Source of the DNA: Candidatus Eiseniibacteriota bacterium | GTDB lineage: Bacteria > Eisenbacteria > RBG-16-71-46 > CAZAMP01 | Reading direction: 5' to 3' | Length of the DNA stretch: 64,000 nt | Assembly (NCBI GenBank): GCA_965224245.1 | Contig: OZ245046.1 | Location: 3,776,001-3,840,000 of the forward strand | Shown: positions 22,663 through 43,569 of the stretch, piece by piece | How positions within the stretch are numbered: the first letter of the stretch is position 1 | Layout: each line of letters opens with the position of its first letter | Translations under genes and position numbers: made by a program | The notes under the pieces: model-generated | What the model saw: only the letters and a program-made list of their open reading frames with translations | Database searches by the model: none | Told to the model about the DNA's origin: nothing

Positions 22663-23309
22663 CGCGGACCGGCGACAGGTCCTCGCTCTTCCTCGAGCGC
22701 ATCGAGAACGGTCCGTTCTTCGTGAACACGTACCTCCTCGGCTGTCGCCGGAGCGGCGAGGCCGTCCTGATCGATCCCGGGCACGAGCAGGACCGCATCT
22801 CCCGGCGCATGACCGAGAGCAGGCTGCGCTACACCGCGATCGTGAACACGCACGGACACATCGACCACGTGGCCTCGGCCAGGCACTTCCAGGATGCGAT
22901 GGAGCTCCCCTTCTGCATGCACGCCGACGACCGGGTGTTCCTGGACGCCCTGGCCGACACGTGTGCGATGTATGGGCTGCCGCCGCTCGAGCCGCCGCGG
23001 CTGGATACCGAGCTGCGGGCCGGCGACACGTACACCGTGGGCGAGGTCTCGTTCACGCTCCGGCACGCGCCCGGGCACTCACCGGGCAGCCTGATCTTCG
23101 ATCTCGGCGAGACGATGATCGTGGGAGACGTGGTGTTTCAGGGATCGATCGGCCGGACGGATCTGCCGATGGGCGACACCGACACGCTTCTCGAGAGCAT
23201 CCGGCGCGAGGTGCTCACGAAGCCGGACGCCGTCACGCTGTGGCCCGGGCACGGTCCCGAGACGACCGTCGGGACCGAGCGCGCCCACAATCCCTTCCTC
23301 CTCGACTGA
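22659..23309 (+). CDS. MBL-fold metallohydrolase (glyoxalase II / YcbL-GloC-like)
   Basis: [45 protein letters not shown] overlap with the BMC gene. Confidence 0.92.
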
Positions 23310-24573
23310 TCGCCCCCGGTCCGTCGATCACCTCGGTCCAGAGACGTTCGAGGGCCTCGAGGTGCGCGTCCGGGGTGTGCCGCGTCAGGACGCGATCGCG
23401 CGCGCGATGGCCGAGCCGCCGGGCCAGGAGCTCGTCGTCCGCCAGGCGCGCCAGCGCCTCGGCCAGGTCCGCGGGGACTCTCGCCCGACACAGGAGCCCC
23501 GTCTCCTCGTGCTCGACCAGCTCCGGCAGGCTGCCGAGGTCGTGTGCGACGACGGGCCGGCCGACCAGCATCGCCTCCAGCGCGACCAGCGGCAAGTTCT
23601 CGTAGCAGATCGACGGGACCACCACCGCCCGCGCGCGGCGCATGCGCGCGAGGATCTCGGGCCGATCGCGCCGCCCCAGGAAGCGGACGCGGTCCAGGTC
23701 CCGCGCGCGGTCGACGAGGGCACGTGCCTCGGGCGCGTCGGTCTGGCCGACGATCTCCAGCACGCCCGGTGAGCCGGCCCGCACGAACGCGTCGATCAGC
23801 CGATCCACCCCCTTCTCCGGCGACAGACGACCGGCGTACACGAACGTCGGCTCCCGTCCGGTGTCGGCGATCGAGGGAGCGGCGTCGATCGCGCGGGGAT
23901 CGATGAAGCTCGGGACGTGCACGATCCGCGACGGATCGAGCCCGCCCTCGATCATCTTGTAGCGGAGAAACGCCGACGGCGCGACGAACCGCGCGATCGA
24001 GTCGTGTAGCCGCAGCCGATCGTGCACGGCCATGCCGGCCACCCGCGCCAGCGACACCGCGGCGGACGCGTGCAGGCAACGCTTGCGAACCGCGTGCAGG
24101 CGACTCCCCCCGAGACAGCGCTCGCATGCGCGCTCGCCGTCGAAGAAGAGATAGCACGGCGCGATCAGATGGAAGTCCGAGAGACGCATGACCACCGGCA
24201 CCCCCGCGTCTCGACACGCGTGGAAGATGCTCGGCGAGAGGACGTTCGCGGCGACGATCACGTACACGACGTCCGGCCGGACGTCACGCAGCAGCGCGGT
24301 CAGGCGGCGCCGGGCCTCCATCGAGTACACCGACCGGGCGAGCAGACGCGCCCTGGCCACCGGTCCCCGCACGTCGCGGAGGTACACCGCGTCCGCGTCG
24401 CCCGGTGGCGGAACGAAGTAGGGCTCGTACTCCGACGGCTCGTTCTGGGCGTAGCGAACCGCGAACGGGATCACGTCGTGCCCGTGCTCCTCCAGGAGCG
24501 CCTTCACGTCGAACAGATAGCGCTCGGGGCCGCCGGTCACGTGGTAGCGGTTGTTGACGAGGACTACCCGCAT
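23233..24573 (-). CDS. Glycosyltransferase family 4
   Basis: GGPERY, GRLSPEKG, PSICYENLPLVALEAM. Confidence 0.9.
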   Translation of the reverse strand: MRVVLVNNRYHVTGGPERYLFDVKALLEEHGHDVIPFAVRYAQNEPSEYEPYFVPPPGDADAVYLRDVRGPVARARLLARSVYSMEARRRLTALLRDVRPDVVYVIVAANVLSPSIFHACRDAGVPVVMRLSDFHLIAPCYLFFDGERACERCLGGSRLHAVRKRCLHASAAVSLARVAGMAVHDRLRLHDSIARFVAPSAFLRYKMIEGGLDPSRIVHVPSFIDPRAIDAAPSIADTGREPTFVYAGRLSPEKGVDRLIDAFVRAGSPGVLEIVGQTDAPEARALVDRARDLDRVRFLGRRDRPEILARMRRARAVVVPSICYENLPLVALEAMLVGRPVVAHDLGSLPELVEHEETGLLCRARVPADLAEALARLADDELLARRLGHRARDRVLTRHTPDAHLEALERLWTEVIDGPGAISRGGRDCGRARSRRSSRDRARATA

Positions 24574-25826
24574 GTTCCCGTTCGCTCGATCCGGTCACGC
24601 CGGCGAGCGGCCGGGTGACGAGCGGTGAGCCATGCATCGACGAGCGATTCCGTCTCGGCAACCATGCGCCGGAGCGCGAACCGGGACGCGGCCACACGGG
24701 CCGCGTTCTCGCCCAGGCGACGCGCCAGCTCGGGCGTCGCGAGCACCCGCTCCATCGCGTCGGCCAGCTCGCGCGGACGGCGGCACGGGACGACCAGGCC
24801 GGTCATGCCGTGCGTGATCAGCTCGGCGCTGCCGCCCGCGTCGGTCGTGACCACCGGCACCGCCAGCGACATGGCCTCCATCAGGAAGTTCGAGCATCCC
24901 TCCCGCTCGCACGAGGGGAGAACGGCCAGATCGCTGGCGCACAGGAGGTCGGCCACGTCGGATCGATGACCCAGAAACCGCACCTGCGTCCCCAGCCCCA
25001 GCCGATCCGCCGCCATCCGGAGCGACGCCTCCAGGGGACCGGTGCCGGCCAGGAGCACCATCGGCCGTACGTCCAGGTCGGCCAGGCGGACCAGTGCCGC
25101 GAGGAGACCCGCATGATCCTTCTTCGGTGTCAGGCTCGCGGCGACCAGCACGACCGGAACGCCCGGCGCGGCGCCCAGCTCGGCCCGGACGACGCCGCGC
25201 GGCCGCCCCGGCGGGGGCCAGTTCGAGGGCAACGCGTTGTAGACGACGTGTGCGTCGGGACGCCGGACACCCCGGCGCCGGAGAAGCTCCAGACCGGCCT
25301 CGGAGTTCGCGACGACGCCGTCGCATCGATCGAGAAGCCGCGACTCGGCCGCGACGAGGAGCCGATGGAGCAGCGAACGCGCCCGGTACGCCGATCCCCG
25401 CTCCGACCCCACCACCACCGGAACGCGGGCCAGCCGGGCCGCCGTGAGGCCGAAGCAGACCCCCGGGGTCAGCCAGCCGTGTACCACGTCGGCTCCTCTC
25501 AGACACGAGACCAGGCGCGGCACGAACGCGACGTCGAAGCGACCGCGGCGACCCACACACGTCACGTGGATGCCCGCGTCGCGAAGCTCGTCCGCGAGAG
25601 CGCCCTCCGCCGAGTCCAGCGTGACGATCGCGGGTGCGAAGCGATCCCGGTCCAGTGCAATCGCGAGCCGGGTCAGCTGACGCTCCGCTCCCCCGCCGCC
25701 GAGCGCGTTCGTGACGAAGACGACGCGCGCGGGACGCCCGAGCGGCGGATCCGGCTCCGGGGTGCGGGTTGCCCGCCACGGCGTCGGGCGGAGCTGCCGC
25801 GCCATCGGACGGAGGTTCGAGATCAC
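24564..25826 (-). CDS. Glycosyltransferase family 4
   Basis: GGAERQL, KKDH, EGCSNFLMEAM..DAGG; GTG overlaps the upstream stop. Confidence 0.88.
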   Translation of the reverse strand: MISNLRPMARQLRPTPWRATRTPEPDPPLGRPARVVFVTNALGGGGAERQLTRLAIALDRDRFAPAIVTLDSAEGALADELRDAGIHVTCVGRRGRFDVAFVPRLVSCLRGADVVHGWLTPGVCFGLTAARLARVPVVVGSERGSAYRARSLLHRLLVAAESRLLDRCDGVVANSEAGLELLRRRGVRRPDAHVVYNALPSNWPPPGRPRGVVRAELGAAPGVPVVLVAASLTPKKDHAGLLAALVRLADLDVRPMVLLAGTGPLEASLRMAADRLGLGTQVRFLGHRSDVADLLCASDLAVLPSCEREGCSNFLMEAMSLAVPVVTTDAGGSAELITHGMTGLVVPCRRPRELADAMERVLATPELARRLGENAARVAASRFALRRMVAETESLVDAWLTARHPAARRRDRIERTGTCG

Positions 25827-26887
25827 GATGCTCTCGCCGCGGTGGCCGTCCCCGGGGCGTCCGCGGCCGCCGGACGCGACCCGGGCCGGTAGGCCCGCAC
25901 CACGGACACCGCCGCGGCGGCGAGCATGCCCAGCACGAACGCTCCCAGGGCGCTGCGCGTGCGCATCGGCCCCGCCTTGAACACCGGTGGCACCGCCGGG
26001 TCGAGCACGACGAGCTCGGGCTGGTGATAGGCTTCGTCGATCTTGGCCAGCTCGTACTGCCTGGTGAGCGTGAGGAAGATCTCCTCCTGGATGCGTGCGT
26101 CGCGCAGGAGACGCCCCTCGCGCAGGAGCAGCTCGGGAGACTTGTTGATGCGGACGTTCTGCGCCCGGAACGCTTTCAGCGCCTCCTCGGCCGCGCGGAG
26201 GCGGGTGCGCGTGGAGTCCATCCGGGTCTCGATGAATGCGCGCGTGGAGGCGGCCTCCTCGGTGCTCTGCATGCGCCGAACACGCTCGGCCTCGGCCACG
26301 ATCGCGTTGGCGATGCCCGCGGCGGTCTCGGGACTTCGATGGCGGACCGTCACCGTCCAGATACCGGTGCGGGAATCCGAGTCGGTCCGGATGCTCTCGT
26401 GTAGCCACGCGAGCGCCGAGGCCCGCCCTTGCGCCGGCGTCTTCGCGTCGGCGCGAAACAGAGAATCCAGGGGCGCGTGCATCCCGAGTCTCGGCTGGAA
26501 GAACGGTCGCGCGAGCACGTGCTCGAGCACGCGCCGGCTCGTCACGACGGTCGCGTAGGCCGATGCGCCGTCCCGGCCCGGTAGCGAGATGCCGACCGCC
26601 TGTGCGAGGTCGGTGGCCTTGCCGAGGTCCATCGCCCTCGCCCCCCCGGCCTCGTTCGGCATCAGCGTGACGGACGCGTCGTAGACGTTGGGAATCATCA
26701 GGGACACCCCGGCCGCGACGCCGGCGGCCAGGAGCCCCGTCGCCACGATCAGCCGCAGGTGGCGCCGCAGGATCCGGGTCACCTCCGGCACGTCGATGCC
26801 GAGCGACCACGCGTCGTCGATCCCGCCCTGCCCGTCGGTGCCCGGGATCGCGATCGGGACCGGCGGTCTCCGCTCTCCATGGGACAT
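25823..26887 (-). CDS. Wzz/GumC-type polysaccharide chain-length determinant
   Basis: TM..PNVYDAS; coiled coil; L.RQYELAKIDE..VVLDPAVPP..P; C-terminal TM. Confidence 0.88.
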   Translation of the reverse strand: MSHGERRPPVPIAIPGTDGQGGIDDAWSLGIDVPEVTRILRRHLRLIVATGLLAAGVAAGVSLMIPNVYDASVTLMPNEAGGARAMDLGKATDLAQAVGISLPGRDGASAYATVVTSRRVLEHVLARPFFQPRLGMHAPLDSLFRADAKTPAQGRASALAWLHESIRTDSDSRTGIWTVTVRHRSPETAAGIANAIVAEAERVRRMQSTEEAASTRAFIETRMDSTRTRLRAAEEALKAFRAQNVRINKSPELLLREGRLLRDARIQEEIFLTLTRQYELAKIDEAYHQPELVVLDPAVPPVFKAGPMRTRSALGAFVLGMLAAAAVSVVRAYRPGSRPAAADAPGTATAARAS

Positions 26888-29800
26888 CTACTTCGTGACC
26901 TCGTTGATGAGAAAGATCGTCGTTGCCGCGCCGGAGAGGACGCTGATGACGTCGGCGACGTCTCTCCAGCGACTGCCGTGCGGCGACTCGATCTTGCGGG
27001 GAACCACGATCGTCGTGCCCGGATCCACAGTTGGCCCGTGACGGAGAAAGCCGCCGGTTCCGTGGTCGACGCTTCCGTTGGCACGCTGAACGAGAATGCG
27101 GTCGCCGTCCGCGAACTCGGTGAGCCCGCCGGCGTGCCGGAGGTAGTACTTCACGCCCTCGCCGGCCCGGAAGATCACGCTCGTGGGAAAGCCGACCTCC
27201 CCCACGACCTTGACCGTCTGCGGCGCCTCGGGGATCCGGAGCGCGTCACCGTCCACCAGCGTCAGATCCTCGGGGCCGCCGGGCTCGGCCAGGGCCCGGG
27301 CCAGATCGATTCCGATGCGACCGGCCTCGTTCTGCTCGCGCGTGAAGATGGCCGCCCGCACGTACGCACCCTCGAGCAGACCGCCGGCTCGCTCGATCAG
27401 CTCGGAGAGCGTCTCCCCGGGGCGCGAGAGGCTGTACACGCCGGGGAATCGGACCTCGCCGGTGATGCTGACGTTCTGCTGGCGCTCCCAGCCCGCGCGC
27501 TCGCGCACGTAAACGACGTCGTTTCGGACCAGCATGAACCCTGGTGCCTCGCCGCGACCGTCGTCCCAGCCGAGGACGTCGACCCGGTACACGTCGGACC
27601 GCCGGCGCTCGGCCGACGCGGTGGTGTCCATGCGCGCGACCTCCACGAACCGATCGTACGCGGTCTCACGAAGCCCCCCCGCCATCCGGACCAGATCCGC
27701 GAGCGACGTGCCGCGCGGCAGCGCGTACCGGCCGGGGGCGCGAACCGGCCCCACGATGCGCACCGAGTCGCGCTCGACGAAGTCCCACTGGGAGCGAACC
27801 GTGACGTGATCCCGATCCGCGAGCGCCATGTGCATGTCGGTGTCGTCCCCGAGATCGACCCTCATGATCGCCTCGCGTCGATCGGGATCGCGCCGGACGA
27901 GCTGTACGTCGTGCGTCCGGGCATCCGGGCGCAGCCCGCCCGCCTGGCCGATCGCGGTCCCGAGCGTCATCCCCGATCGCCACGCGACGCGCCCGGGGCG
28001 TCGCACCCCGCGTCCGGTCACCTCGACGTAGCGACCGGTCTCCTCGAGCACCGCGTCGATCGTGATCTGATCACCGTCCCGGAGGGGGAACGGCACCACG
28101 CCGAGGAGCTCGTTCCGCCCGACCGTCTTCAGCTCCCAGCCATAGTCGCGCTCGCCGGTGGCGACGTCGCCCCGAGCCACCCGGCGCACGTTCGCCCGCT
28201 CGAGATAGGCCTCGGCGGTGAGCCCGCCGGCCGCGGCCAGCACGTCGGCGAGCCCCTCGCCCGCCCGCACCTCGTACACCGCCTCTCGAAAGACCTCGCC
28301 GGCCACCCGCACGCGCGCGCCGGCGGTCGGAACGTGTATCGCATCTCCCGACGCGAGCCCCACGTCGTGCGACAGATCACCGGCGAGGAGCACGCGGTAG
28401 AGATCGACCGTGGCCACCGCGCGGCCGTCACGCACGACCTCGATCGCGCGCAGCGTGCCGCTCTCGCGCGGACCTCCGGCGCGGAACAGCACGTCGAGCA
28501 CCGACGCGGTGGCGGTCACGCGATACGCGCCGGGGCGGCCGACCTCTCCGAGCACGAACACCTGGATCGTGCGGACCCTGGCCACCGACAGGTCGAACCA
28601 CGTCGTCGGATCGGCGCCGTCGCGTCCACGAAGCCCCGAGTACACGTCGGCGAGACGGATCTCGAGCTCGTGCTCGAGCACGTCGAGGGCGCGCCCCGCC
28701 ACCGCCACCAGCCCGACGTCCTTGATGAACACGCGCCCTTCGCGATCGACGGGGAGGGTCTCGACGAGCTCGGTGTCGCCCCATACGGTCAGGACCAGCT
28801 CGTCCCCGGGCCCCACGAGGTAGTCGGGTGGAACCCGTCCCCAGTCGAGCGGCGCGAAGCCGTCGGGGGAATCGGTGAAGAGGTCGTAGCCGAACGGGGT
28901 CAGCGCCGTGCTGTCGCGGCGCGCTCCGATCGCGTCGGGATCACGCACCGGCGGCGGGGTCGGGGCCAGCTCGGCGTCGCCGAGCCCCACACCGGACGCG
29001 GACGAGCGGGCACGATCCCGGAGGGAATCCAGCGTCGCACGACGCGCGCTGGACAGCGCGTCCTGGATCGCCCGCGCCTCGACCTCGTCGATGCGGCCGA
29101 CCGAGCCGACCGCGTGGCGGCGCAGCTGCTCGACCTCCGAGTGGCTGAGATCCTGAGCGTGCGACGACCCGAGCGTGGTCAGGAGCGCGGCCGACACGAC
29201 GGCGACGAGTGCCGCCGCGCGCGAGCCCCGGGCCGGCCACGATCGAGACCGGAGCCGACGCACGGCGCCACGCACGGCCGACGGCGTCGCCGCCTCCATC
29301 GCGTCGAGATCGCGATCGGAGAGACGGCCGAGGAGCCGCACCACCGACACGCCGCCGGCGAGCGCCGATGCCAGCAGCACCGGGATCGGGCTCTCGACGA
29401 GCAGCGAGAGCGCCAGCGCCGGGATCAGCGCCGCGCCCACGCGAGCCGCCACCGACGCCGCGAATCGCCAGTCCACGTCGCCGTCACAGATCCGACGGGC
29501 CAGGAGCCGCCCCAGCCCCGTCATCATCAGACCGGCCGCCACGCGGGCACCCGCGATACCCACGAGACCGAACAGGTTCCCGAGCACGAAGACCATCCCC
29601 AGGTTCGTGAGACTGCCCCAGAGCTCCAGGCGAACGGTCTGGCCGGGTGGGGCGGCGACGTAGACGACGCCACCGAGGAGCGCGTGGAGGGCATACAGCG
29701 TCGCGGCCAGGCAGAGCACCGCGAGCACCGGCGCGGCGGCCGGATACCGGCCACCGCCGATCACGTCGACGAGCGAGCCCGACGCGACCGCGATCGACGC

Positions 29801-30733
29801 CGCCAGCGGAACCGTGCCCAGGAGCACGAACCGGGAGCTGCGGCGAAGCGCTGCGCCGATCCGATCGCGCCCGAGCGCCTTCACCGCCGACAGCTTCGGC
29901 AGGAGCGGCGAGACGAGCGCATCGATCACGACCGTCACGTAGTTGAAGAACCGGCACGCCAGGTAGTACGCGGCGAGCGATGCGGGTCCGAGGAGAATGC
30001 CGACCACGAGCTTGTCGGCGTGCATGCTGCCCAGCCGCAGGAATCCGTTCAGGTAGAACGGCAGCGCCAGCCGACCGATCGACTCGACGTCGGGCCGCCG
30101 CGCGGGACCGATCAAGAGCCGCCGGTGCCAGAACGCGAGACCCAGCGTCAGGAAGAGCTCGCCGATCGCGTACGCGAGCACCATCTCCTCGAACCGACCG
30201 GTCCACAGCAGCGTGGCGAGCGCGAGCGCGCGAAGCGGTAGATCGTGCACGATGCGCATCACGCTGACGCTCGCGATCCGATCGAGAGCCGAGACGACGA
30301 GGAGTGACTGCTCGTAGAGACGACCGCTCACCACCGCGAGTGCGAGCGCACGCACGAGCGGCGCATGATCGGGTGAGCGGAGAAAGAGCGCGGCCACGGG
30401 CTCGGGCCGGACGACGAGCACGGCCACCAGCGGTACGAGCGCGAGCGACGGGAGCACGAGCGTTCGTCGAGCGACCCAGCGTGCGCTGGGGGCGTCGCCC
30501 CGCGCCATCGCCGGGGGACCCAGCTGGTACAGCACGCCCACCAGCCCGAACGCCGACACGGTGCCGGTCAGGGCCAGAAACGGCTCCAGGAGCGCCCACG
30601 CGGCCAGCTCGAGCGGGCTGACCCGGCGCGTCAGCACGGCCAGCCAGGTGACGCCGGCGACGGCCATGATTCCCTGAGCCGAGAGAAGCCCCGCGCTGTC
30701 GCGGATCGCGCGAGTGGCTCGGTTGGCATCCAC
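26888..30733 (-). CDS. In-frame fusion of an N-terminal Wzx/MOP oligosaccharide flippase and a C-terminal SLBB-repeat polysaccharide export protein (Wza/KpsD-like)
   Basis: ~480 aa multi-TM part with DKLVVG..G...LAAYYLA; then PFGYDLF..DYLVGPGDEL..WG..VDREG, repeated V.GEV..PG.Y SLBB units and PGTTIVVP. Confidence 0.85.
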   Translation of the reverse strand: MDANRATRAIRDSAGLLSAQGIMAVAGVTWLAVLTRRVSPLELAAWALLEPFLALTGTVSAFGLVGVLYQLGPPAMARGDAPSARWVARRTLVLPSLALVPLVAVLVVRPEPVAALFLRSPDHAPLVRALALAVVSGRLYEQSLLVVSALDRIASVSVMRIVHDLPLRALALATLLWTGRFEEMVLAYAIGELFLTLGLAFWHRRLLIGPARRPDVESIGRLALPFYLNGFLRLGSMHADKLVVGILLGPASLAAYYLACRFFNYVTVVIDALVSPLLPKLSAVKALGRDRIGAALRRSSRFVLLGTVPLAASIAVASGSLVDVIGGGRYPAAAPVLAVLCLAATLYALHALLGGVVYVAAPPGQTVRLELWGSLTNLGMVFVLGNLFGLVGIAGARVAAGLMMTGLGRLLARRICDGDVDWRFAASVAARVGAALIPALALSLLVESPIPVLLASALAGGVSVVRLLGRLSDRDLDAMEAATPSAVRGAVRRLRSRSWPARGSRAAALVAVVSAALLTTLGSSHAQDLSHSEVEQLRRHAVGSVGRIDEVEARAIQDALSSARRATLDSLRDRARSSASGVGLGDAELAPTPPPVRDPDAIGARRDSTALTPFGYDLFTDSPDGFAPLDWGRVPPDYLVGPGDELVLTVWGDTELVETLPVDREGRVFIKDVGLVAVAGRALDVLEHELEIRLADVYSGLRGRDGADPTTWFDLSVARVRTIQVFVLGEVGRPGAYRVTATASVLDVLFRAGGPRESGTLRAIEVVRDGRAVATVDLYRVLLAGDLSHDVGLASGDAIHVPTAGARVRVAGEVFREAVYEVRAGEGLADVLAAAGGLTAEAYLERANVRRVARGDVATGERDYGWELKTVGRNELLGVVPFPLRDGDQITIDAVLEETGRYVEVTGRGVRRPGRVAWRSGMTLGTAIGQAGGLRPDARTHDVQLVRRDPDRREAIMRVDLGDDTDMHMALADRDHVTVRSQWDFVERDSVRIVGPVRAPGRYALPRGTSLADLVRMAGGLRETAYDRFVEVARMDTTASAERRRSDVYRVDVLGWDDGRGEAPGFMLVRNDVVYVRERAGWERQQNVSITGEVRFPGVYSLSRPGETLSELIERAGGLLEGAYVRAAIFTREQNEAGRIGIDLARALAEPGGPEDLTLVDGDALRIPEAPQTVKVVGEVGFPTSVIFRAGEGVKYYLRHAGGLTEFADGDRILVQRANGSVDHGTGGFLRHGPTVDPGTTIVVPRKIESPHGSRWRDVADVISVLSGAATTIFLINEVTK

Positions 30734-30743
30734 CGCCGTGCCC

Positions 30744-31892
30744 CTAGCGAGCGAGACCGGCGGCGGGGGCCTCGACCAGCGGCCGCACGATCGTGAGGAG
30801 CTCGTGCATCTGGATCGCGGTTCCCACCGTGATCCGGAGGCAGCCCGACAGCCCCGCCAGGTGAGCCAGGTTCCGCACGAAGACGTTCTTTCCCCGGAGC
30901 GCCTCGCTCAACGACGCCGGATCGTCGGGGCGGATGATCATGAAGTTGGCCGGGGTCGGATGGCACTGGATGCCGATCTCGGTGAGCCCCTTCTCGAGCT
31001 CACTCATGCCCCAGCGCACGTCGGCGCAGTACTCGCGGACGTCCTGATACGCGTCGAGGGCGGCCACCGCGGCCACCTGACCCAGCGCGTTGACGCTCTT
31101 GCCGACGCGAATGCGAGCGAGCACGTCGACGATCGTCGGGTGGGCGACCACGTAGCCGATCCGGAATCCCGCGAGACCGAAGGCCTTGGAGAACGTGCGG
31201 GTCACGAGGAGATTCGGATGCGCGCGCACGAGATCGATCACCGAGCGTTCGGAGTACTCGTGGTACGCCTCGTCCACGACCACGAGCGAGGAGCGATGCC
31301 GCGAGGCGAGGCGGCGAATCACCGTGTCGTCGTACTCGGTGCCGGTCGGGTTGTTCGGGCTCCCCAGGTAGATCAGCCGCGACCCGGGGACGATCGCGTC
31401 CAGCTCGGCCAGGTCCGGATCCAGGGGCGACGTGTAGGTGAAGGCCTCGACGTGCGCGCCGGCGGCCTCGGCGTAGACGCGGAAGTTGTCGTACGTCGGG
31501 GACACGGTGGTCACCCGTGCGCCCGGCTCCAGGTAGGCCCGGGTCACGTACTCCAGCGCGCTGTCGGATCCGGCGAACGTCAGAATGGACTCCGTCGGCA
31601 GACCCGTGTACCCCGACAGCGCGGTCGTCAGCGTCGTCGCGGCCACGTCCGGATACCAGTTGAGCGGTCGCCCCTCGAGAAACCGGCGCACCTCGTGGAT
31701 GACGAGGGCCGGCGGGGACACCGTCGACTCGTTCCAGTCGAGCTTCATCGCGCGCGCCGGATCGACCAGCGAAAGCGCCTCCTGGCTCACGACGGGATAG
31801 GGCCGGATTGCCTCGACCCACGGCGTCGCGGGAATGCGTCCGTCGAGCGGGTCACGAATGGACTTCGCGGTCACCATGATCTCCCAGGCCAT
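30744..31892 (-). CDS. PLP-dependent aminotransferase, histidinol-phosphate aminotransferase (HisC/CobD) family
   Basis: KLDWNES, YPD, GSD, PNNPTG, DEAYHEY, RTFSKAFGLAGFRIGY, LRITVG. Confidence 0.9.
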   Translation of the reverse strand: MAWEIMVTAKSIRDPLDGRIPATPWVEAIRPYPVVSQEALSLVDPARAMKLDWNESTVSPPALVIHEVRRFLEGRPLNWYPDVAATTLTTALSGYTGLPTESILTFAGSDSALEYVTRAYLEPGARVTTVSPTYDNFRVYAEAAGAHVEAFTYTSPLDPDLAELDAIVPGSRLIYLGSPNNPTGTEYDDTVIRRLASRHRSSLVVVDEAYHEYSERSVIDLVRAHPNLLVTRTFSKAFGLAGFRIGYVVAHPTIVDVLARIRVGKSVNALGQVAAVAALDAYQDVREYCADVRWGMSELEKGLTEIGIQCHPTPANFMIIRPDDPASLSEALRGKNVFVRNLAHLAGLSGCLRITVGTAIQMHELLTIVRPLVEAPAAGLAR

Positions 31893-33342
31893 TGACGGCG
31901 CGCCGGAACGGCCGCCGCGTCACGGACTCCCCGGCCGAGAACGCCCGGACGCACTGACGCAGCTTGCCGCCGGGCCCGGGGGGTATCTCGTCCACGACGG
32001 TCCACGTCAGCGAGCAGTCCGACAGATAGCGACCGACCTCGAACCGGAGCGCCTCGAGCACGGACGGGGCGATCGCCGCGCCGTCGCGCTCGAGCGTGAT
32101 CTCGAAGCGCGTCCAGTCGGTCTGGACGATCTGGAAGCGGCGCACGCCGGCCGCGCCGCGGAAGATCTTGTGGAAGACGTGCGACGACAGCGTCTCGCCG
32201 CCGGGAAACACGAACACGTCGTTCACGCGTCCGATGATCTCGCGCACGAGCGGCAGCCCGCGACCGCAGGCACAGCCCATGCCCGGATCCTCGGGTCGTC
32301 CGAGATCGCCCACGCGATACCGAACGAGAGGCAGCGCCCGGGACGTGAAGCTCGTGACGACGAGCTCGCCCACCTCGCCGGGTCGGACGGGTCTCCCGTC
32401 GGCGGCCAGGAACTCCACGAGCGCCGCGTCGGACTGCAGGTGGAGGCGGTGTGCCGGATCGGCGCCGCACTCGTGCGCGATCACGCCGACCTCGGTACCG
32501 CCGTAGCGGTTGAACACCCGGGCCCGAAACGCCCGCGCGATCAGCCGGCGCAAGGCCGGGCTCAGCGTCTCCCCGCCGCAGATGACCGACTCGGCCGTGG
32601 CGTCCTCGATCCCGTTGGCCACGACGTGGCGCGCCAGCAGCGAGAGCGCGCTGACGTATCCCTCGATCACCCGCGGCCGGTGTGAGCGGATGCGGTCACA
32701 CATCTCGGCCAGCCGGGCCTCGTCGAGCCGCGAGCGCTCGGGGCGGGTGGCGTCGTAGACCGAGAGCTCGACCAGACGGTGGAGGCGCCTGCGCACGCGC
32801 TCGCGCGGACCGGCGGCGCCGTCGGTGCGCCAGAGCTTCACGTTCGGATCGCCGTCGTAGTATCCGGCGGCCTCGCGCGTGCGAAACGTGAGTGCACGAC
32901 GCTCGCGCGCCGACTTCGCGTCCAGCGGGAACCGGAACGGCTCGCCGGTGGACCCGGTGGACGCCATCGGGTACACCGGTCGTTCGTAGCGATCCGAGAG
33001 CGCGGTTCCGGCCTCGAGCGCCTCGCGCAGCATCGACTTGTCGACGATCGGAAGCCGGCGGACGTCCTCGGGCCGCCGAAGGTCGCGCGGCGAGACCCCG
33101 TGCGCGGTCCAGAGCTCCCGGTAGAAGCGATTGTGCTCCCAGGCGAACGTGGTGATGCGAAGGAGGCGTTGCCACTGGAGCTCTCGAATCCGATTCGCCG
33201 GCCACCATTCCCGGGGCCGGATGGCCCGGTACTCCGACCACGTCCGCCGGTTGAACACCTGGACGGCCGCCCGCCAGAGGCGCGCGCCCGCTCCGGGCCG
33301 GACGGCGGTGCGGGGTTCGACGATCGATGGGGCCGTGGCCAT
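31852..33342 (-). CDS. Phenylacetate-CoA-ligase / CapK-like adenylating enzyme
   Basis: LPIVDK, STGSTGEP, RYGGTE, PLVRYRVGD, IIGRVND, GKLR. Confidence 0.87.
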   Translation of the reverse strand: MATAPSIVEPRTAVRPGAGARLWRAAVQVFNRRTWSEYRAIRPREWWPANRIRELQWQRLLRITTFAWEHNRFYRELWTAHGVSPRDLRRPEDVRRLPIVDKSMLREALEAGTALSDRYERPVYPMASTGSTGEPFRFPLDAKSARERRALTFRTREAAGYYDGDPNVKLWRTDGAAGPRERVRRRLHRLVELSVYDATRPERSRLDEARLAEMCDRIRSHRPRVIEGYVSALSLLARHVVANGIEDATAESVICGGETLSPALRRLIARAFRARVFNRYGGTEVGVIAHECGADPAHRLHLQSDAALVEFLAADGRPVRPGEVGELVVTSFTSRALPLVRYRVGDLGRPEDPGMGCACGRGLPLVREIIGRVNDVFVFPGGETLSSHVFHKIFRGAAGVRRFQIVQTDWTRFEITLERDGAAIAPSVLEALRFEVGRYLSDCSLTWTVVDEIPPGPGGKLRQCVRAFSAGESVTRRPFRRAVNGLGDHGDREVHS

Positions 33343-33430
33343 GGGGACCTCTCTCTCACGCGAGCGCGAGCCAGCGCGGCCCCATCCATGGGGCCCTCGA
33401 CGAGCCATCCCGGCCCGGCGCCTTCGGAAG

Positions 33431-33460
33431 TGAAGGTCGGCTGATGTCCGCCGATCTTTA
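33431..33460. promoter_or_regulatory. Overlapping back-to-back sigma28-like promoters
   Basis: Plus: TGAA-N15-GCCGATCT (33431-33457); minus: TAAA-N15-GCCGACCT (33460-33434). Confidence 0.6.
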
Positions 33461-33495
33461 CGGGGAACTCGTTCCCGCGGGAGAAAGACGACAGG

Positions 33496-34359
33496 GTGCA
33501 CCCGATCCGCTTCGCGCTCCGAGACGACGACACGTCGGCGTTCACGACGCCCGAGAGCCTCGAATCGGCCTATGGCCATCTGTGGGACCGGCATCCGGTG
33601 TCGCTGGCCGTGATCCCGTTCGCCGTGGAGACGCGCCACCTCGGCGATCCCGCCCGCTTCGAGCAGGGTGACGAGGCGGTTCCGCTCGGGCACAATCGCC
33701 GGCTCGTCCGCTTTCTCCGCGACGCGATCGCGGCGGGCCACGTGTCGATCCTGCTGCACGGACATCGGCACCGGTACCGGAGGGGGACTCGCGCCGGCGA
33801 GTGGATCCCCGAGTTCGTGGCCGCGGACGATCCCCATCGGCTGATCGGTGAGGGACGCCGGTACCTCGAGTCCCTCCTCGACGTCCGGATCCGCACCTTC
33901 GTCCCCCCCTCCAACGCGATGTCGCCGGCGGCCTACGCGGCGGTCCGGCGGCACGGGCTGAACCTCACCCAGCTCCCTGCGCTCCGCGTCGCGCTGGCGT
34001 CGGCCTCGCCGTCGGCGTGGCCCACCCTCGCCCGCCGGATCGGGGCCCGCCTCGCCGGGAGCGACATGCCCGACGTGCTCCAGCTGGCGACGCACCGGGA
34101 ACTCGCCGCCATCCCGATCACGCCACGCACCCCGTTCGAGAGCGTCCGTGACGCGCTCGATCGACGGCGGAGGACGGTGTGTCTGGCCACCCATCACTGG
34201 GAGCTGGACCGCGCGGTGGATCCATCCGTCGCGCATCCCGGCGGTCCGGGCGTCACGGTGGGCGACGTGCTCGCCGGCGCCCTCGCCTGGCTCGACGCGC
34301 GGGGCGCGATCGGCGTGACGGTCGACGATCTCTTCGAGCCCGACTACGCGGCCGCCTGA
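33496..34359 (+). CDS. DUF2334 / polysaccharide deacetylase (NodB-like) protein
   Basis: FALRDDD, LAVIP, LHGHRH, EF, FVPPSN, THHWE. Confidence 0.8.
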   Translation: MHPIRFALRDDDTSAFTTPESLESAYGHLWDRHPVSLAVIPFAVETRHLGDPARFEQGDEAVPLGHNRRLVRFLRDAIAAGHVSILLHGHRHRYRRGTRAGEWIPEFVAADDPHRLIGEGRRYLESLLDVRIRTFVPPSNAMSPAAYAAVRRHGLNLTQLPALRVALASASPSAWPTLARRIGARLAGSDMPDVLQLATHRELAAIPITPRTPFESVRDALDRRRRTVCLATHHWELDRAVDPSVAHPGGPGVTVGDVLAGALAWLDARGAIGVTVDDLFEPDYAAA

Positions 34360-35468
34360 GCCCCGAGCACGGCCTCGAGACGATCCACCGCTTCGGACCA
34401 GTCGTGAGAGGTGATGACGGCGGCGCGCGCGCGCCCCCCCATCGCGCGCCGGCGTTCGGGGCTCGCCACGAGGGAGGCGACGTGTGCCGCGAAAGCGGCC
34501 TCGTCGCCGGCCGGCGCGAGCAGGCCCGTGTCCCCGTGGCGGACCTGGTCCGCGAGCCCGCCGACGTCGAAGGCGACGACGGGCAGTCCCGAGGACATGG
34601 CCTCCAGCACGGCGTTGGGATAGTTGTCGAAGCTCGATGGGAGCACGAACACGTCGGCGGCGCGAAGGCGCCCCGCAACGTCGTCCGGGGAGAGGTGTCC
34701 GAAGAGCCGTACGCGCCCGGAGAGTCCCCGGCGGCGCACGTCCCGGGCGAGTCCCTCCCGAAGGGGACCGTCGCCGGCGACGTCCAGCCGGACGTCGTGA
34801 CCGCCGGCCAGGAGGCTCTCCAGCATCGGCAGCAGCCGGTGCACCGACTTGACGGGAACCAGTCGGCCCACGAAGACGAGGCGCGTCCGGCCCGACCGCG
34901 ACTCGCGTGCGGGATCGGGACGGAACCGCTCGGCGTCGACCCCCTTGCGCACCTCGACGACGTCGACCCCCAGGTGCTCGCGGATCGCGCGCACGTCGAA
35001 CCCGTCCGCGACGATCGCGTCCACCCCGCGGGCGGCCTCTTTCACGTCTCCGGGAGGCAATCCGCCCGAGCTCGCGACGACCACCCGGATACCCAGCCCG
35101 CGCTTGATGCGCCAGGCCAGGGGAAACAGGCCGAAGGTGAGCACGGCGTCGACGCCCGACCGGGCCCGCCCGGCACACGCATCGACCGCGCGGAACGCAG
35201 CGCGCTCGAAGAGTCGCTCGTCGAGGCGGACCAGGACACCTCGCCCCCGCGCCACGCGATACGACCAGTCGCGGAGATACGGTGCCTTCACCCCGACGCC
35301 CTCGATGCCGTCGGGAAAGGCGTACCGCGGCGGGCCCAGGAGGGGATGCGCGCAGACGAGCGTGATCGCGTGCCCGCGTGAGAGGAGCCCGTCCGCGAAC
35401 GCCAGCGTCCGGGTCTCGCCGCCGCCCCGCATCATCGCGAGGCTCTTGTTCACCACGATGATGTTCAT
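34344..35468 (-). CDS. Glycosyltransferase family 4
   Basis: GGGET, GRLVPVK, PSSFDNYPNAVLEAMSSGLPVV. Confidence 0.9.
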   Translation of the reverse strand: MNIIVVNKSLAMMRGGGETRTLAFADGLLSRGHAITLVCAHPLLGPPRYAFPDGIEGVGVKAPYLRDWSYRVARGRGVLVRLDERLFERAAFRAVDACAGRARSGVDAVLTFGLFPLAWRIKRGLGIRVVVASSGGLPPGDVKEAARGVDAIVADGFDVRAIREHLGVDVVEVRKGVDAERFRPDPARESRSGRTRLVFVGRLVPVKSVHRLLPMLESLLAGGHDVRLDVAGDGPLREGLARDVRRRGLSGRVRLFGHLSPDDVAGRLRAADVFVLPSSFDNYPNAVLEAMSSGLPVVAFDVGGLADQVRHGDTGLLAPAGDEAAFAAHVASLVASPERRRAMGGRARAAVITSHDWSEAVDRLEAVLGAQAAA

Positions 35469-35477
35469 GGGGGCGCC

Positions 35478-36827
35478 TCAGGCAGCCTGACTCGTCACGA
35501 GCGATCGGACGGCGCGGTGCTTGTCGCCGATCTCGGCGGCCGCGCGCCGCGTCTCCCGCCACGAGAAGCGGATCCCGGGGAAGCGTTCGGTCACCAGCGC
35601 CCGCACGCGGGCCAGCTCGCCCGGATCCATCCGGCCGTCCGGAATGACGAAGGTGACCTCGATCCGATCCGGATCGGTCTGGACGACCGTGAACCGATCC
35701 ACCGAGCGCAGATCGCGGAAGTAGATGTGCCAGACGTGCGAGAAGACGCGGCGCCCGTCGGGCAGGACGAACACGTCGTTGACGCGCCCGTGCACCGCGC
35801 GCAGCCGGGGAAACGGCCCGTGTGCGATCGGGTCCAGCTCCGCGAGGTCGCCGATCTCGTAGCGGATCAGCGGCATCGCGCGGTTCAGGAGGTCGGTCAC
35901 GAGCAGCCGTCCGGGCTCGCCCTCGCGCGAGGGCAGGATCTCGAGATGGTAGTAGTCGCTGAACGCGGTCAAGGACGTCTCGCCGGCGGCGTTGACGGCG
36001 ATCATGGGCGCCTCGGACGCGCCGTAGAGGTTGTGCACCGGACACCCGAACGCCTCGGTCAGGAGCGCCCGCTCGGCATCGCCGAGGTACTCGGCCGAGC
36101 ACACGACGCGCTGGGGCCGGATGCGATCGTCTCCGGCGCGAACGACGTGACGGGCCAGCGCCACCAGCGCGCTCACGTATCCGCGGACGATGTGTGGGTC
36201 GAAGCGGGCCACCTCGGTGGCCACGGCGGCCAGCGCCGCGTTCCCCATCGCGCTCTCGACCGGCCTGGTGACCTCGGTCACCGGAATCCACTGAAGGAGT
36301 CCCCGTGCGATGCGGCGCCGGTCGGCCGCGCCGTGCGACTCGTAACGTCGCCAGAGACGGGTCGTCCGTTTCCAGCCGGCGTGCCCGATCCACCGCTCGC
36401 CACGCGCCAGGAGTGCCCGGCGCCGCCACAGGCACCTTCGATCCTCGGCGAACCGGAGCGGGGTCCCGGTCGATCCGGTCGTCGTGCCGATCACGAGCTC
36501 GCGCGGCGCGAACGCGCGGGACAGCGCTCTCCCGTCGGCCAGGGCCTCCCGGAGCTCGTCCTTGGCCAGCGGTGGCAGGTAGGCGAGATCGGTGAGATCG
36601 CGGATGTCGTCGGGTCGCATCGCGGCCGCGAGCATGCGCTCGCGGTGGAGCGGCACCGTCTCGAACGCGTGCGCACAGAGCGCGCGAAGCCGCGCGATCT
36701 GGTACTCGCGCATGCGCTCGAGATCCCAGCGCTCGCGCGCGCGGGCGGCGAGGCGGTCGACGTTCGCGCGCGGGTTCCTCCAGGACAGCACCGGCGAGCC
36801 GATGCGAATGAGCGGAGTCACGTTCAT
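35478..36827 (-). CDS. Second phenylacetate-CoA-ligase / CapK-like adenylating enzyme
   Basis: TTGSTGTP, YGASE, MPLIRYEIGD, GRVND; paralogue of 31852-33342. Confidence 0.87.
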   Translation of the reverse strand: MNVTPLIRIGSPVLSWRNPRANVDRLAARARERWDLERMREYQIARLRALCAHAFETVPLHRERMLAAAMRPDDIRDLTDLAYLPPLAKDELREALADGRALSRAFAPRELVIGTTTGSTGTPLRFAEDRRCLWRRRALLARGERWIGHAGWKRTTRLWRRYESHGAADRRRIARGLLQWIPVTEVTRPVESAMGNAALAAVATEVARFDPHIVRGYVSALVALARHVVRAGDDRIRPQRVVCSAEYLGDAERALLTEAFGCPVHNLYGASEAPMIAVNAAGETSLTAFSDYYHLEILPSREGEPGRLLVTDLLNRAMPLIRYEIGDLAELDPIAHGPFPRLRAVHGRVNDVFVLPDGRRVFSHVWHIYFRDLRSVDRFTVVQTDPDRIEVTFVIPDGRMDPGELARVRALVTERFPGIRFSWRETRRAAAEIGDKHRAVRSLVTSQAA

Positions 36828-37720
36828 GCCGCCACCCCGCGCGGCTGCGCGCCGGTCGAGGGGCCGCCGGTCGCGGCGGTCACCGGCTCGACGACCCCGG
36901 TGGCGGGGTCCCGTCGCCAGCGCCGCTCGCCGTTCGCCGGCGAGCGTTCGAGCTCGATTCGGGCATCGAGCCACTCGCGCACCTCTCGCTTGATCGCGCG
37001 CCATGGAGCCCTGGCCGGAGCCGGGATCGACGCCGTCAGACGGCGGCGAATCGACGTCATCGCCCCGGCCGGGCGTCCGAGATCACCGCGGGAGACGTCG
37101 GCCGCGGCCAGACGCACGACGACACCGCCCCGCCGGAGGCCGTCCGGACTCGGCTCGTCGACCTCGACCACCGATCGTCCGACCTCGTGGGGCGCGTGCG
37201 CGTCGCTGCCGGCGATCAGCGGAACGCGGGGCAGGTCCGGGAGACGGACCCGGAGACGGTCGAGCTCGGCGGGATCGCTCTTGGCGTTCGAGAGCTCGAT
37301 CAGGTCGATTGCGCTCAGCGCCGCCTCGACCTCGCGCGGGCCGTGGCGGTGCTCGTCCTCGGCGTTGGCCAGGAGACCGGTGTCCCGCCGGTACGGATGC
37401 GGGAGCGCGACCAGCCCCCCCAGGTCGTGGATCTCGTCGATGACATCGAGCAGCGACCGCGAACGAGGCGGCCGCGAGATCCACAGTCCGATGACGTGAG
37501 TCCGGCGATCGGTCGTGACCTCGATCCCGGGGACGATCTCCAGCGCCGCGCGTACCCGATCCACCTCGCGACGCACGGGGTCCACACCGGCCATCGTGTC
37601 GTGGTCGGTGATCGCCAGCGCCGCCAGGCCCCGGCCTACCGCCCAGGAGACGATGCGCCCCACGCGGGCGCTCGAGTCCGGCGAGAATCGCGTGTGGCAG
37701 TGGCCGTCGATGCGAAACAT
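36824..37720 (-). CDS. PHP-domain phosphoesterase (TrpH-like)
   Basis: DGHCHT..SPD, AITDHD, GIEV..H, PHPYR, GSDAH. Confidence 0.88.
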   Translation of the reverse strand: MFRIDGHCHTRFSPDSSARVGRIVSWAVGRGLAALAITDHDTMAGVDPVRREVDRVRAALEIVPGIEVTTDRRTHVIGLWISRPPRSRSLLDVIDEIHDLGGLVALPHPYRRDTGLLANAEDEHRHGPREVEAALSAIDLIELSNAKSDPAELDRLRVRLPDLPRVPLIAGSDAHAPHEVGRSVVEVDEPSPDGLRRGGVVVRLAAADVSRGDLGRPAGAMTSIRRRLTASIPAPARAPWRAIKREVREWLDARIELERSPANGERRWRRDPATGVVEPVTAATGGPSTGAQPRGVAA

Positions 37721-37794
37721 CCGGAACTCCTCGGTCGCGCTCGCGTTCCCCCGTCGAACGGCACGTCGGCTCGTGGGCGCGCGGCGTCCATTCT

Positions 37795-37881
37795 CAATCG
37801 GCTGCTCGCGCCCCTTCTGAAGTGGGCGGGCGCCGGCGCGGGACGACAAAAGCATCAAGGACGCCCATGGCGCTCCGACAA
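37795..37881. promoter_or_regulatory. Divergent sigma28-like promoter pair
   Basis: Plus: TCAA-N15-TCCGACAA (37855-37881); minus, weaker: TTCA-N15-GCCGATTG (37821-37795). Confidence 0.45.
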
Positions 37882-38117
37882 TTGGGCCGAGGACGAACGC
37901 CGTCCCGGGGCCTCCGGGGCGCGGTTGTCGGGTCGCGAGGTCTCGGCTAGACTCGCACCTCGCCCGTCGTCATACCGGCAGGAGCATCATCGGCGGAGCG
38001 ACGCGCGGCGGTCGACGAGGCGTCGCGACCACTCACTCGAACCCCGACGCGGCGGATACGTGCAGGTCCATCGACCCGCACGACGTCGTTGGGTCGGGAG
38101 CAAACGAGAACGCATCC

Positions 38118-39251
38118 ATGGATCTGTCGGTCATCCTGACCTATCGGTGCGATTCCAGGTGTTCGATGTGCTACATCTGGAAGAATCCCACGCACCCCGA
38201 TGCCGAGGTCTCGCTGGAGACGCTCTCGAAGCTGCCGAGCGGCTTCGACTACCTGAACGTGACCGGCGGCGAGCCCACGCTCCGCAAGGATCTGATGGAC
38301 GTCGTCGACCTCCTGTATCCCAAGACGATGACGCTGGAGATCAGCTCCAACGGGCTGCACGCCGATCGTCTGGTTCCGATCGTCGAGAAGTACCCGAACG
38401 TCAAGGTCCGCATCAGCGTGGAAGGCTTCGAGGGCACCAACGATCGGATCCGGGGCGAGAAGGGCGGCTTCGAGAAGAAGATCGACACGATGAACCGGCT
38501 CATCGACGCCGGCGGCACCGACCTCGGGTTCGCGACCACGTTCCAGGACGAGAACGTCGACGAGATCGTGGACATGTACCGGCTCACGAAGAAGCTGAAC
38601 ATCGAGTTCGCGACCTCGGCGCTCCACAACGGCTTTCAGTTTCACAAGAACGACAACTACCAGTACGACCGCATGGCGGTGGCCAGACGCGTGGAGGACC
38701 TGATCACCGAGATGTTGAAGTCGAGCTCGGTGAAGTCGTGGTTCCGCGGCTACCTGAACATGGGGCTGATCGAGAAGATCCTCGGCCACGACCGGCTCAT
38801 GCCGTGCACCGCCGGGACCGACTTCATCTTCGTGGACCCGTGGAGCGACGTGTACGCGTGCAACGTCCGGCCGGATCTCCTGATGGGCAACCTCCGGGAG
38901 CAGGAGTGGACGGACATCCTGCACGGCCGCACCGCCTCCGAGCAGCGCGAGAAGGTGGCGGCGTGCGAGCAGAACTGCTGGATGGTGGCCTCGGCGAAGA
39001 CCGCGATGCGACATCCGAAGTACGCGAGGATCCCGAAGTGGGGACCGCTGGCCTGGGTGCTTCGAAACAAGATCCGGGCGACGCTGGGGATTCCGATCCC
39101 GTTTCACCGTTACATCGACTACGCCCACGTGAAGACGGACGACCCCGTGGTGAAGCGCATCAGCTTTCTCGACCGAAACGAGAAGCGGCAGGTCCAGCCG
39201 AAGGAGAGCCGTCGCTACGGGCAGTTCGGCGCCGGCTTCTTCAATCGATGA
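38118..39251 (+). CDS. Radical SAM / SPASM-twitch protein of the type found in capsule loci
   Basis: TYRCDSRCSMC, TGGEP, ISVEG..ND.IRG, PCTAG..DP...VYAC..GN, C...CWM. Confidence 0.92.
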   Translation: MDLSVILTYRCDSRCSMCYIWKNPTHPDAEVSLETLSKLPSGFDYLNVTGGEPTLRKDLMDVVDLLYPKTMTLEISSNGLHADRLVPIVEKYPNVKVRISVEGFEGTNDRIRGEKGGFEKKIDTMNRLIDAGGTDLGFATTFQDENVDEIVDMYRLTKKLNIEFATSALHNGFQFHKNDNYQYDRMAVARRVEDLITEMLKSSSVKSWFRGYLNMGLIEKILGHDRLMPCTAGTDFIFVDPWSDVYACNVRPDLLMGNLREQEWTDILHGRTASEQREKVAACEQNCWMVASAKTAMRHPKYARIPKWGPLAWVLRNKIRATLGIPIPFHRYIDYAHVKTDDPVVKRISFLDRNEKRQVQPKESRRYGQFGAGFFNR

Positions 39252-42878: not shown

Positions 42879-42879
42879 G

Positions 42880-43560: not shown

Positions 43561-43569
43561 GGCATCGCC

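Follow-up and report, generated by a model that had tools for sequence, protein, structure and literature searches.

Flippases and outer-membrane exporters of polysaccharides are usually seen as the products of separate genes, each made for its own membrane. One open reading frame that yields both a polytopic membrane protein and an exported protein was reportedly described by Thony-Meyer, James and Hennecke in 1991: the Bradyrhizobium japonicum cytochrome b/c1 precursor FbcH, whose two parts are said to be separated at an internal signal sequence. It belongs to a respiratory complex, and both of its products reportedly reside in the inner membrane. To our knowledge, FbcH is the sole published precedent for internal cleavage by a bacterial signal peptidase I (SPase I). 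Among outer-membrane exporters (OPX), E. coli KpsD represents class 2B and serves an ABC-transporter pathway; in proteins of this class Poly_export is combined with a number of SLBB domains, a GfcC-like module and a helix at the C-terminus; they are non-lipoproteins with a signal of the SPI type, and carry Sec/SPI signals in 83% of cases, according to the accessible part of PMC9603273. E. coli Wza (2J58) belongs to class 1, ~78% of which have an N-terminal lipoprotein (SPII) signal with Cys. Here we describe a gene in which a Wzx flippase is fused to a KpsD-like exporter. Such a fusion is rare and gives a new form to a device already reported for FbcH.

The window is the whole 64,000-nucleotide stretch of DNA analysed, from a Candidatus Eiseniibacteriota bacterium (contig OZ245046.1). 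An uninterrupted frame of 1281 aa runs on its minus strand from a GTG at 30733 to 26888 (26888..30733); all parts of the fusion given below are on this strand. Its first part (aa 1-~504) is a complete Wzx/MOP flippase of 14 helices, and a complete KpsD-like OPX protein follows (aa 527-1281). A reading made from the sequence only had proposed a single ORF with flippase and exporter domains, and Pfam and fold matches bear out both identities. The GTG lies 10 nt past the upstream stop. Its use as the start is supported by an anti-SD energy of -5.6 kcal/mol and by the N-termini of stand-alone Wzx proteins and of a second fusion, P0003, which align from residue 4-5. GC3 is 0.75-0.95 over the entire length of the frame.

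The flippase proper (aa 1-468; 29330..30733) has 14 predicted membrane helices with both ends cytoplasmic, and its loops hold 33 K+R inside versus 6 outside when the helix ends are placed manually. Polysacc_synt_3 (PF13440) matches aa 97-333 with 46 bits (cut-off 23), while PF01943 scores 26.6 bits, just below its cut-off of 28.2; the P0003 flippase exceeds the cut-off for both. The AlphaFold model (pTM 0.83) finds MurJ (6NC6; Foldseek E 1e-8, TM-score 0.63-0.68) and WzxE (9G9P; E 8e-8). Both a Polysacc_synt-type profile and the 12-14 helix fold of Wzx/PST (MOP) proteins are thus present. Compared with MurJ and WzxE, which share the MOP fold of this 14-helix model, the fusion has one more helix, the 15th, which is signal-like, and behind it a periplasmic protein of 755 aa. 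The flippase ends in a basic cytoplasmic tail (aa 469-504; 29222..29329) that aligns with the final ~35 residues of stand-alone Wzx proteins P0153 and P0005 and has 10 K+R in the loop.

The mature OPX part (aa 527-1281, 755 aa; 26891..29155) was modelled with a mean pLDDT of 87.9. From the N-terminus it consists of Gln at +1, short helices, a Pro-rich linker, Poly_export, six beta-grasp domains and a C-terminal helix. Poly_export (PF02563) occupies aa 634-698 (28640..28834; 52.5 bits, cut-off 28) and is followed by SLBB domains, mapped by Pfam to six stretches of the fused protein. This is the domain order of OPX proteins, and fold matches agree, the top structural match being Wza 2J58 (Z 13.8-14.2). 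The last two beta-grasp domains (aa 1085-1253; 26975..27481), located after the SLBBs, form a GfcC-like module according to both fold (3p42 by VIA-align: Z 11.2, rmsd 4.0, 161 aligned) and profile (E 6e-6), with no direct Pfam match of PF06251 to the fused protein. A 26-residue helix at aa 1255-1280 (26894..26971; model residues 729-754) is a candidate outer-membrane-spanning helix; 19 of the 31 residues in aa 1251-1281 are identical to P0003. The exporter thus resembles Wza in its Poly_export and SLBB fold, but has six beta-grasp domains where Wza has two, gives no Pfam match to Wza_C (PF18412), lacks a lipobox and is fused to Wzx. The N-terminal SPII signal of class 1 is missing also from its relatives (lipobox in 0/61 homologues), while a signal-like h-region and an A/Q site are present, placed internally. 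The exporter is of class 2B, KpsD-like, with a GfcC-like module and a signal predicted to be of the signal peptidase I type; of the initial label Wza/KpsD-like, the KpsD half holds and the Wza lipoprotein half does not. The mature length of 755 aa may be compared with the class median of 824 aa given in the accessible part of PMC9603273. In contrast to KpsD, the signal of this exporter is preceded by a whole flippase, and the exporter is encoded with a Wzx and a kinase-less co-polymerase.

Is the fusion genuine? An assembly error is very improbable, as is a recent stop-codon loss without consequence, confined to a single genome, and we consider this explanation largely refuted already. Logan contigs from three of four sequencing runs (X1-X3) cover 26000-32000 unbroken, with no other letters and no gaps. 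These runs represent one sample, possibly the source of the window DNA, and the evidence consists of contigs rather than raw reads, which leaves the artefact explanation some room. The fourth run (X4) comes from a different sample of the same study and gave short pieces, none of which crosses the junction among those listed. X2 and X3 each have a single contig, at depth 4-5, with small insertions at 29114/29118, and spanning contigs of the same two runs are without them. The read support asked for in the sequence-only reading thus has a contig-level counterpart within that one sample, where spanning contigs show no differences at the junction. The stronger check against an artefact is P0003, an independently assembled full-length fusion of 1271 aa with the same in-frame junction (54% identity; 690 of 1287 columns identical). 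This second lineage makes an assembly error, or the lost stop originally considered, unlikely, and it answers the search for further proteins carrying flippase and OPX together. The fused 1281-aa ORF is real. Origin by a frameshift within this genome was considered and rejected, both for the colinearity of the junction with that of P0003 and on codon scores: with aa 401-640 divided into 12 blocks of 20 codons, the ORF frame scores best in 10; aa 481-500 score weakly, with another frame higher, and aa 561-580 are nearly tied.

The window protein and P0003, both from uncultured assemblies, are the only two fused sequences found (2 matches among 7999 candidates scored). P0003 is sister to the window protein in both the Wzx tree (14 rows; support 99/96, path 1.23 changes/site) and the OPX tree (12 rows; support 96/93, path 0.91 changes/site), although both fused sequences are flagged for composition bias, which can draw them together. 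The next-closest homologues, P0005+P0006 and P0153+P0157, are pairs of separate proteins (502-504 + 773 aa, totals of 1275 and 1277 aa) with 45-47% identity in Wzx and 53-54% in OPX. That the members of each pair are co-located is inferred only from contigs of equal size (5818 and 21025 bases). Split pairs would be expected if a stop had been lost recently, and relatives with two genes had been named beforehand as an argument against the fusion. They do not refute it, however, since the sister lineage is fused. Because the fused P0003 is sister in both trees and the next-closest pairs are split, the fusion probably arose once and was kept over about one substitution per site, as far as these sequences tell.

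Wider searches returned no further fusion. Metagenome contigs scanned with an alignment (A1) and with P0006 gave no locus (0/297 and 0/54 pattern matches confirmed), genome contigs scanned with P0003 gave four distant loci without a fusion, and an ESM Atlas query with aa 400-720 gave no usable match. In the phylum (206 genomes, one of them, G083, unpublished and not used for any individual claim), Poly_export matches occur in 203 genomes and the Wzx subfamily of the window in two, its own and G006, which has a stand-alone frame of ~500 aa. In 11 long Poly_export frames (1095-1306 aa) taken from the matches listed, the OPX part is preceded by one hydrophobic segment at most, and this also holds for all 72 non-own OPX frames (loci L002-L075), some of them duplicates or truncated at locus edges. 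This absence from the phylum relatives inspected is what an artefact or a recent stop loss would also produce. Our literature search found no published Wzx-OPX fusion, although supplements of PMC9603273, which we cite from its accessible part, could list such proteins; it found no bacterial internal-signal polyproteins either.

The junction consists of a basic stretch (aa 488-505; 29272-29219), a hydrophobic helix (~aa 506-523) and SHA/QD, with Ala526 at 29158-29156 and Gln527 from 29155. The SPase I-like signal is therefore where the sequence-only reading had located it (~29150-29270). Its completeness stands in part: the h-/c-region is there (aa 505-526, ending in S-H-A; 29156..29221; predicted cut 29156/29155), whereas most of the basic 'n-region' belongs to the cytoplasmic tail of the flippase itself, which would act in its place. 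Residues 505-526 are positionally homologous to the N-terminal signals of the stand-alone P0006 and P0157; the helix itself is modelled with pLDDT <50, from few alignment rows. A small residue followed by Gln after a hydrophobic stretch occurs in 53 of the 61 Met-starting stand-alone OPX homologues (66 aligned). The two fusions share 11/36 residues of the tail and 9/22 of the h/c-region, and both keep the hydrophobic stretch and a small-x-Ala/Gln site (SHA/QD in the window protein, ALA/QG in P0003). From a conserved tail Asp to Gln+1 there are 52 and 45 aa in the fusions versus 55 and 57 summed across the split pairs; with distances this close, little beyond the n-region has been lost. The -3/-1 Ala-X-Ala rule for signal peptidase I is given in the accessible part of PMC9360617. 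A rule-based scan placed the P0003 cut at 523/525, away from ALA/Q at 519, so the exact position rests on the alignment. In the window's own genome, Gln is at +1 after 46 of 419 crude N-terminal SPI-like sites (11%) versus 2% overall, SPase I genes give four matches (two being adjacent pieces), and plant-type glutaminyl cyclase (PF05096, the plant type only) gives none. There is no Cys in the junction. A Tat-type internal signal, suggested by RR in both fusion tails, was rejected; RRxFLK, the Tat motif according to the accessible part of PMC9360617, is absent, and stand-alone Wzx tails share RR.

The same region could also start translation. If ATG 29299, GTG 29275 or GTG 29263 were used, the OPX protein would mainly be made separately with a signal of 36-48 aa, and the long product would remain the source of the flippase, being either trimmed at the same site or broken down. 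These codons are in frame and would yield plausible signal peptides, whose constant use would explain the conservation of the site. Anti-SD energies at the three are weak (+0.3, -1.9 and -1.5 kcal/mol) compared with 885 operon-internal starts from a crude purpose-made gene caller (median -6.0, 90th percentile -1.7), even though ~28% of those are weaker than -3.5 kcal/mol. Local mRNA folding (-19.5 to -21.9) is more stable than the 10th percentile of the same starts (-18.7). No upstream stop is available for translational coupling, while 433/885 starts are 4-nt overlaps, and the P0003 junction has no Met. At the candidates no Shine-Dalgarno site is present, although the genome uses such sites, and initiation there, which had been put forward for GTG 29275 and ATG 29299, is disfavoured. 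We regard separate synthesis of the exporter as unlikely.

We favour, with a probability of about 0.65, a precursor from which signal peptidase I would release two proteins made 1:1, a flippase of 15 helices and a free OPX protein. A cleavable polyprotein was among the initial proposals, and P0003, the conserved A/Q site and the weak internal starts now place it ahead of a tether or an internal start. No stop separates the halves, so any ribosome translating the flippase runs on into the exporter. In the proposed scheme, this precursor of a Wzx-type polysaccharide pathway would have its 14 flippase helices inserted by SRP/Sec with the C-terminus inside; the basic tail would give the next helix, the 15th (aa 505-523), the inside-to-out orientation of a signal peptide, and the OPX part of 755 aa would be threaded into the periplasm, where the predicted topology puts the cut site. 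After cleavage behind Ala526 the flippase would retain one extra helix, and the KpsD-like OPX would be free and non-lipidated, with Gln527 as its first residue. This OPX may dock on the co-polymerase encoded next to it and use its C-terminal helix to reach the outer membrane. FbcH is reportedly similar in being one precursor with an internal signal, and the sequence features of the window protein are consistent with such a processed polyprotein; its second product is predicted for the outer membrane, unlike those reported for FbcH. Neighbouring wzx and opx genes were probably brought in frame with the signal h/c-region retained, which would have fixed 1:1 synthesis. That ratio has no obvious benefit, because an octameric OPX (accessible part of PMC12819527) would normally be needed in excess of the flippase.

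Alternatively, the chain might stay uncut or be partly cut, with helix 15 as a permanent anchor tying the flippase covalently to the KpsD-like outer-membrane exporter in one trans-envelope chain, and up to eight flippases around the OPX/co-polymerase ring. The ~85 residues between helix 15 and Poly_export, made up of short helices and a Pro-rich linker of low confidence (model residues 54-82, pLDDT <50), would probably give slack enough, and stand-alone KpsD occurs in the fractions of both membranes, inner and outer, if its co-polymerase is present (accessible part of PMC9603273). The same linker, however, is present in free stand-alone OPX proteins and is therefore no adaptation to tethering. 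Moreover, although a single substitution would suffice to end cleavage, Ala-1, a small residue at -3 and the Gln+1 typical of the family are retained in both lineages over about one change per site. We find a lasting tether improbable; if true, it would be direct physical evidence of flipping and export in one machine and a natural tool to capture the full Wzx-PCP-OPX complex.

The importance of the fusion is limited by its rarity (two sequences). Its conservation suggests that the tail of a polytopic protein of the inner membrane can serve to launch a large exporter bound for the outer membrane, and it offers a clean test of internal cleavage by a bacterial signal peptidase I. As a 'Rosetta stone', it also connects Wzx with a KpsD-like OPX of class 2B, whose typical member works in an ABC pathway.

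The fusion gene lies in a gene cluster. As looked for in a Wzx/Wzy pathway, a co-polymerase adjoins the fusion gene: a kinase-less Wzz + GNVR-like protein of 354 aa (25823..26887, minus strand) begins right after the fusion stop. Wzy_C, the one polymerase family searched, has 10 matches in the genome and none inside the window. According to profile matches, two GT4 glycosyltransferases lie downstream (23233..25826, minus strand) and a class I/II (HisC-like) aminotransferase lies directly upstream (30744..31892, minus strand). The remaining cluster (31852..40387) encodes two PaaK/F390-synthetase-like ligases, a DUF2334 protein, two further GT4s, a PHP hydrolase and a radical SAM/SPASM protein.

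A single minus-strand reading frame of 1281 codons, running from a GTG at 30733 to the stop at 26890-26888, encodes the fusion. Within this ORF, Pfam profiles place a polysaccharide flippase domain (aa 97-333), Poly_export (aa 634-698) and six SLBB stretches. The sequence-only reading had described a basic stretch, a hydrophobic helix and an SHA/Q site at the junction (about 29150-29270), and all of them are indeed there. The continuity of the frame, which that reading had made dependent on read support, is borne out at the level of contigs: in three of four public runs, all from one sample that is possibly the source of the window DNA, contigs span 26000-32000 without a difference. The fourth run yielded nothing but short contigs that do not reach the junction. 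Near 29114-29118, two small insertions each occur in one low-depth contig and are missing from the spanning contigs. We consider it very unlikely that the frame is an artefact or the product of a fresh stop loss.

Each half is an ordinary member of its family. A structural model of aa 1-560, based on 16 sequences (pTM 0.83), matches MurJ and WzxE, identifying a Wzx/MOP flippase. It shows 14 long helices, the last of which stops at aa 468; after them come two short helices at 473-498 and, at low confidence, a helix at 505-524 (helix 15). When helix ends are assigned manually from the model, K+R residues number 33 in inside loops vs 6 in outside ones, so the flippase tail is predicted to be cytoplasmic and helix 15 to be directed outward. 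For aa 527-1281 the model (67 sequences, pLDDT 87.9) begins with short helices, continues through a disordered linker and Poly_export to six beta-grasp domains, and closes with a helix of 26 residues. Its best structural match is Wza, and the last two beta-grasp domains match GfcC (Z 11.2). Under the scheme of PMC9603273, which reports Sec/SPI signals in 83% of class 2B OPX proteins, this half is a class 2B, KpsD-like OPX.

A search with aa 1-500 against proteins of 704-2242 aa returned two matches among 7999 candidates, the window protein and P0003. The latter (1271 aa, 13,975-base contig) has an identical Pfam set and aligns with the window protein over its full length (54% identity), staying colinear across the junction. 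The best 150 of 10,912 phmmer hits to aa 1-800 among 1.84 billion 50%-cluster representatives, 10 of them checked against Pfam, contained no further Wzx-OPX fusion, and in the top 120 of 1076 hits to aa 440-900 flippase domains are confined to the same two proteins. Across 206 genomes of the phylum, this Wzx subfamily occurs only here and, as a stand-alone gene, in one relative (G006), and the phylum loci inspected hold no other flippase-OPX frame, so the fusion has a narrow distribution. Eleven loci in relatives (L062-L072) have short OPX genes closing open frames of 1095-1306 codons without upstream membrane helices; probably they are not fusions but frames that high GC keeps open across an adjacent gene.

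The nearest other homologues are split: Wzx proteins P0005 (502 aa) and P0153 (504 aa), and OPX proteins P0006 and P0157 (773 aa each). P0005 and P0006 both come from contigs of 5818 bases, and P0153 and P0157 from contigs of 21025 bases; the matching sizes suggest that the two genes are adjacent within each pair. Phylogenetic trees of both halves group the window protein with P0003 as sisters (support 99/96 for Wzx, 96/93 for OPX) and place the split proteins immediately outside them; the composition of both fused sequences is flagged as biased. Most simply, the two descend from one fusion event, retained over 0.9-1.2 changes per site.

In stand-alone Wzx homologues the basic tail ends about 32 residues past a conserved Asp (D475 in the window protein), and the window protein tracks these tails to about aa 504. 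Signals of stand-alone OPX proteins end in small-x-small/Gln (a simple rule finds this in 53 of 61), and none of the 61 has a lipobox. The two closest read APA/QG and VDA/QS, and at the aligned place the fusions have SHA/QD (window protein) and ALA/QG (P0003). The span from D475 to Gln+1 is 52 and 45 residues in the fusions vs 55 and 57 in the split pairs, so the fusion retained the flippase tail and the signal h/c-region, losing little beyond the signal's own N-terminus. All rule-based cleavage sites in the window protein cluster at aa 522-532, and 10 stand-alone Wzx controls have none; in P0003 the rule placed sites at 523/525, not 519. Among 41 proteins of the genome with at least six helices and a long soluble tail, three have an Ala/Gln site after the last helix, the window fusion having the most basic flank.

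We favour, with a probability of about 0.65, a cleaved precursor. The flippase would be inserted co-translationally, helix 15 would then serve as an internal signal, and the OPX part would be exported, with SPase I, which the genome encodes, cutting after Ala526. The sequence analysis shows the unbroken frame, its domains, their conservation, the signal's homology in position and the weakness of the internal starts; we infer localisation and partner docking along with topology and cleavage. A chain left uncut, tethering exporter to flippase, seems quite unlikely. A nested internal start, also raised by the sequence-only reading, is unlikely as well. Shine-Dalgarno pairing is in use in this genome, 64% of 885 operon-internal starts (from a crude gene caller) reaching -5 kcal/mol or better; for 600 control ATG/GTG codons inside genes and in frame, the share is 21%. 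The junction candidates (ATG 29299, GTG 29275 and GTG 29263) give +0.3, -1.9 and -1.5 kcal/mol, compared with -5.6 for the 30733 start, and lie in stable mRNA structure (-19.5 to -21.9 vs a median of -12.3). Since roughly one in four genuine starts is also weak and the start set is crude, we regard an internal start as disfavoured rather than anything stronger. With or without it, the flippase can be made only within the long chain.

A cleaved precursor would work like FbcH of Bradyrhizobium, reportedly one precursor split at an internal signal. No published Wzx-OPX fusion was found in the open literature, judged largely from search listings. The fusion is real, conserved and rare, a previously known kind of device in a new form. 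In P0107 (1238 aa, Logan, 18,414-base contig) an O-antigen-ligase/Wzy_C domain runs on in the same frame into a multi-SLBB OPX; internal Met residues and a signal-like segment lie ahead of the OPX part. Its OPX falls outside the window protein's clade, so it arose either as a separate fusion or through loss of a stop; its existence suggests that fusion with upstream membrane genes occurs readily where OPX genes carry cleavable signals. Outside the window, at 3166904-3170038 of contig C1 (minus strand), an MMPL/RND permease continues without a break in frame into a LolA-like protein; the signal-like segment joining them retains a Met of its own and a VLA/Q site. This is possibly a second internal-signal fusion in this genome, or a lost stop.

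Directly after the fusion's stop begins a co-polymerase that lacks a kinase domain, and behind it come two GT4 genes. On the upstream side the cluster encodes an aminotransferase, two PaaK/F390-like ligases, a DUF2334 protein, another two GT4s, a PHP hydrolase and a radical SAM protein. Besides GT4s, the cluster (23233-40387) holds five enzyme types. It contains no recognisable Wzy polymerase, and none of the genome's 10 Wzy_C matches falls within the window; the polymerase gene therefore lies elsewhere or has escaped recognition. Genome-wide, there are 11 flippase-like and six Poly_export matches. At 22045-22662 (plus strand) a tandem BMC-domain shell protein (PF00936) has a metallo-hydrolase-like ORF as its neighbour; no further microcompartment gene was recognised in the vicinity. 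A four-gene membrane protein cluster at 41300-44766 (minus strand), three of whose proteins match no Pfam family, is headed by a DUF6754 protein.
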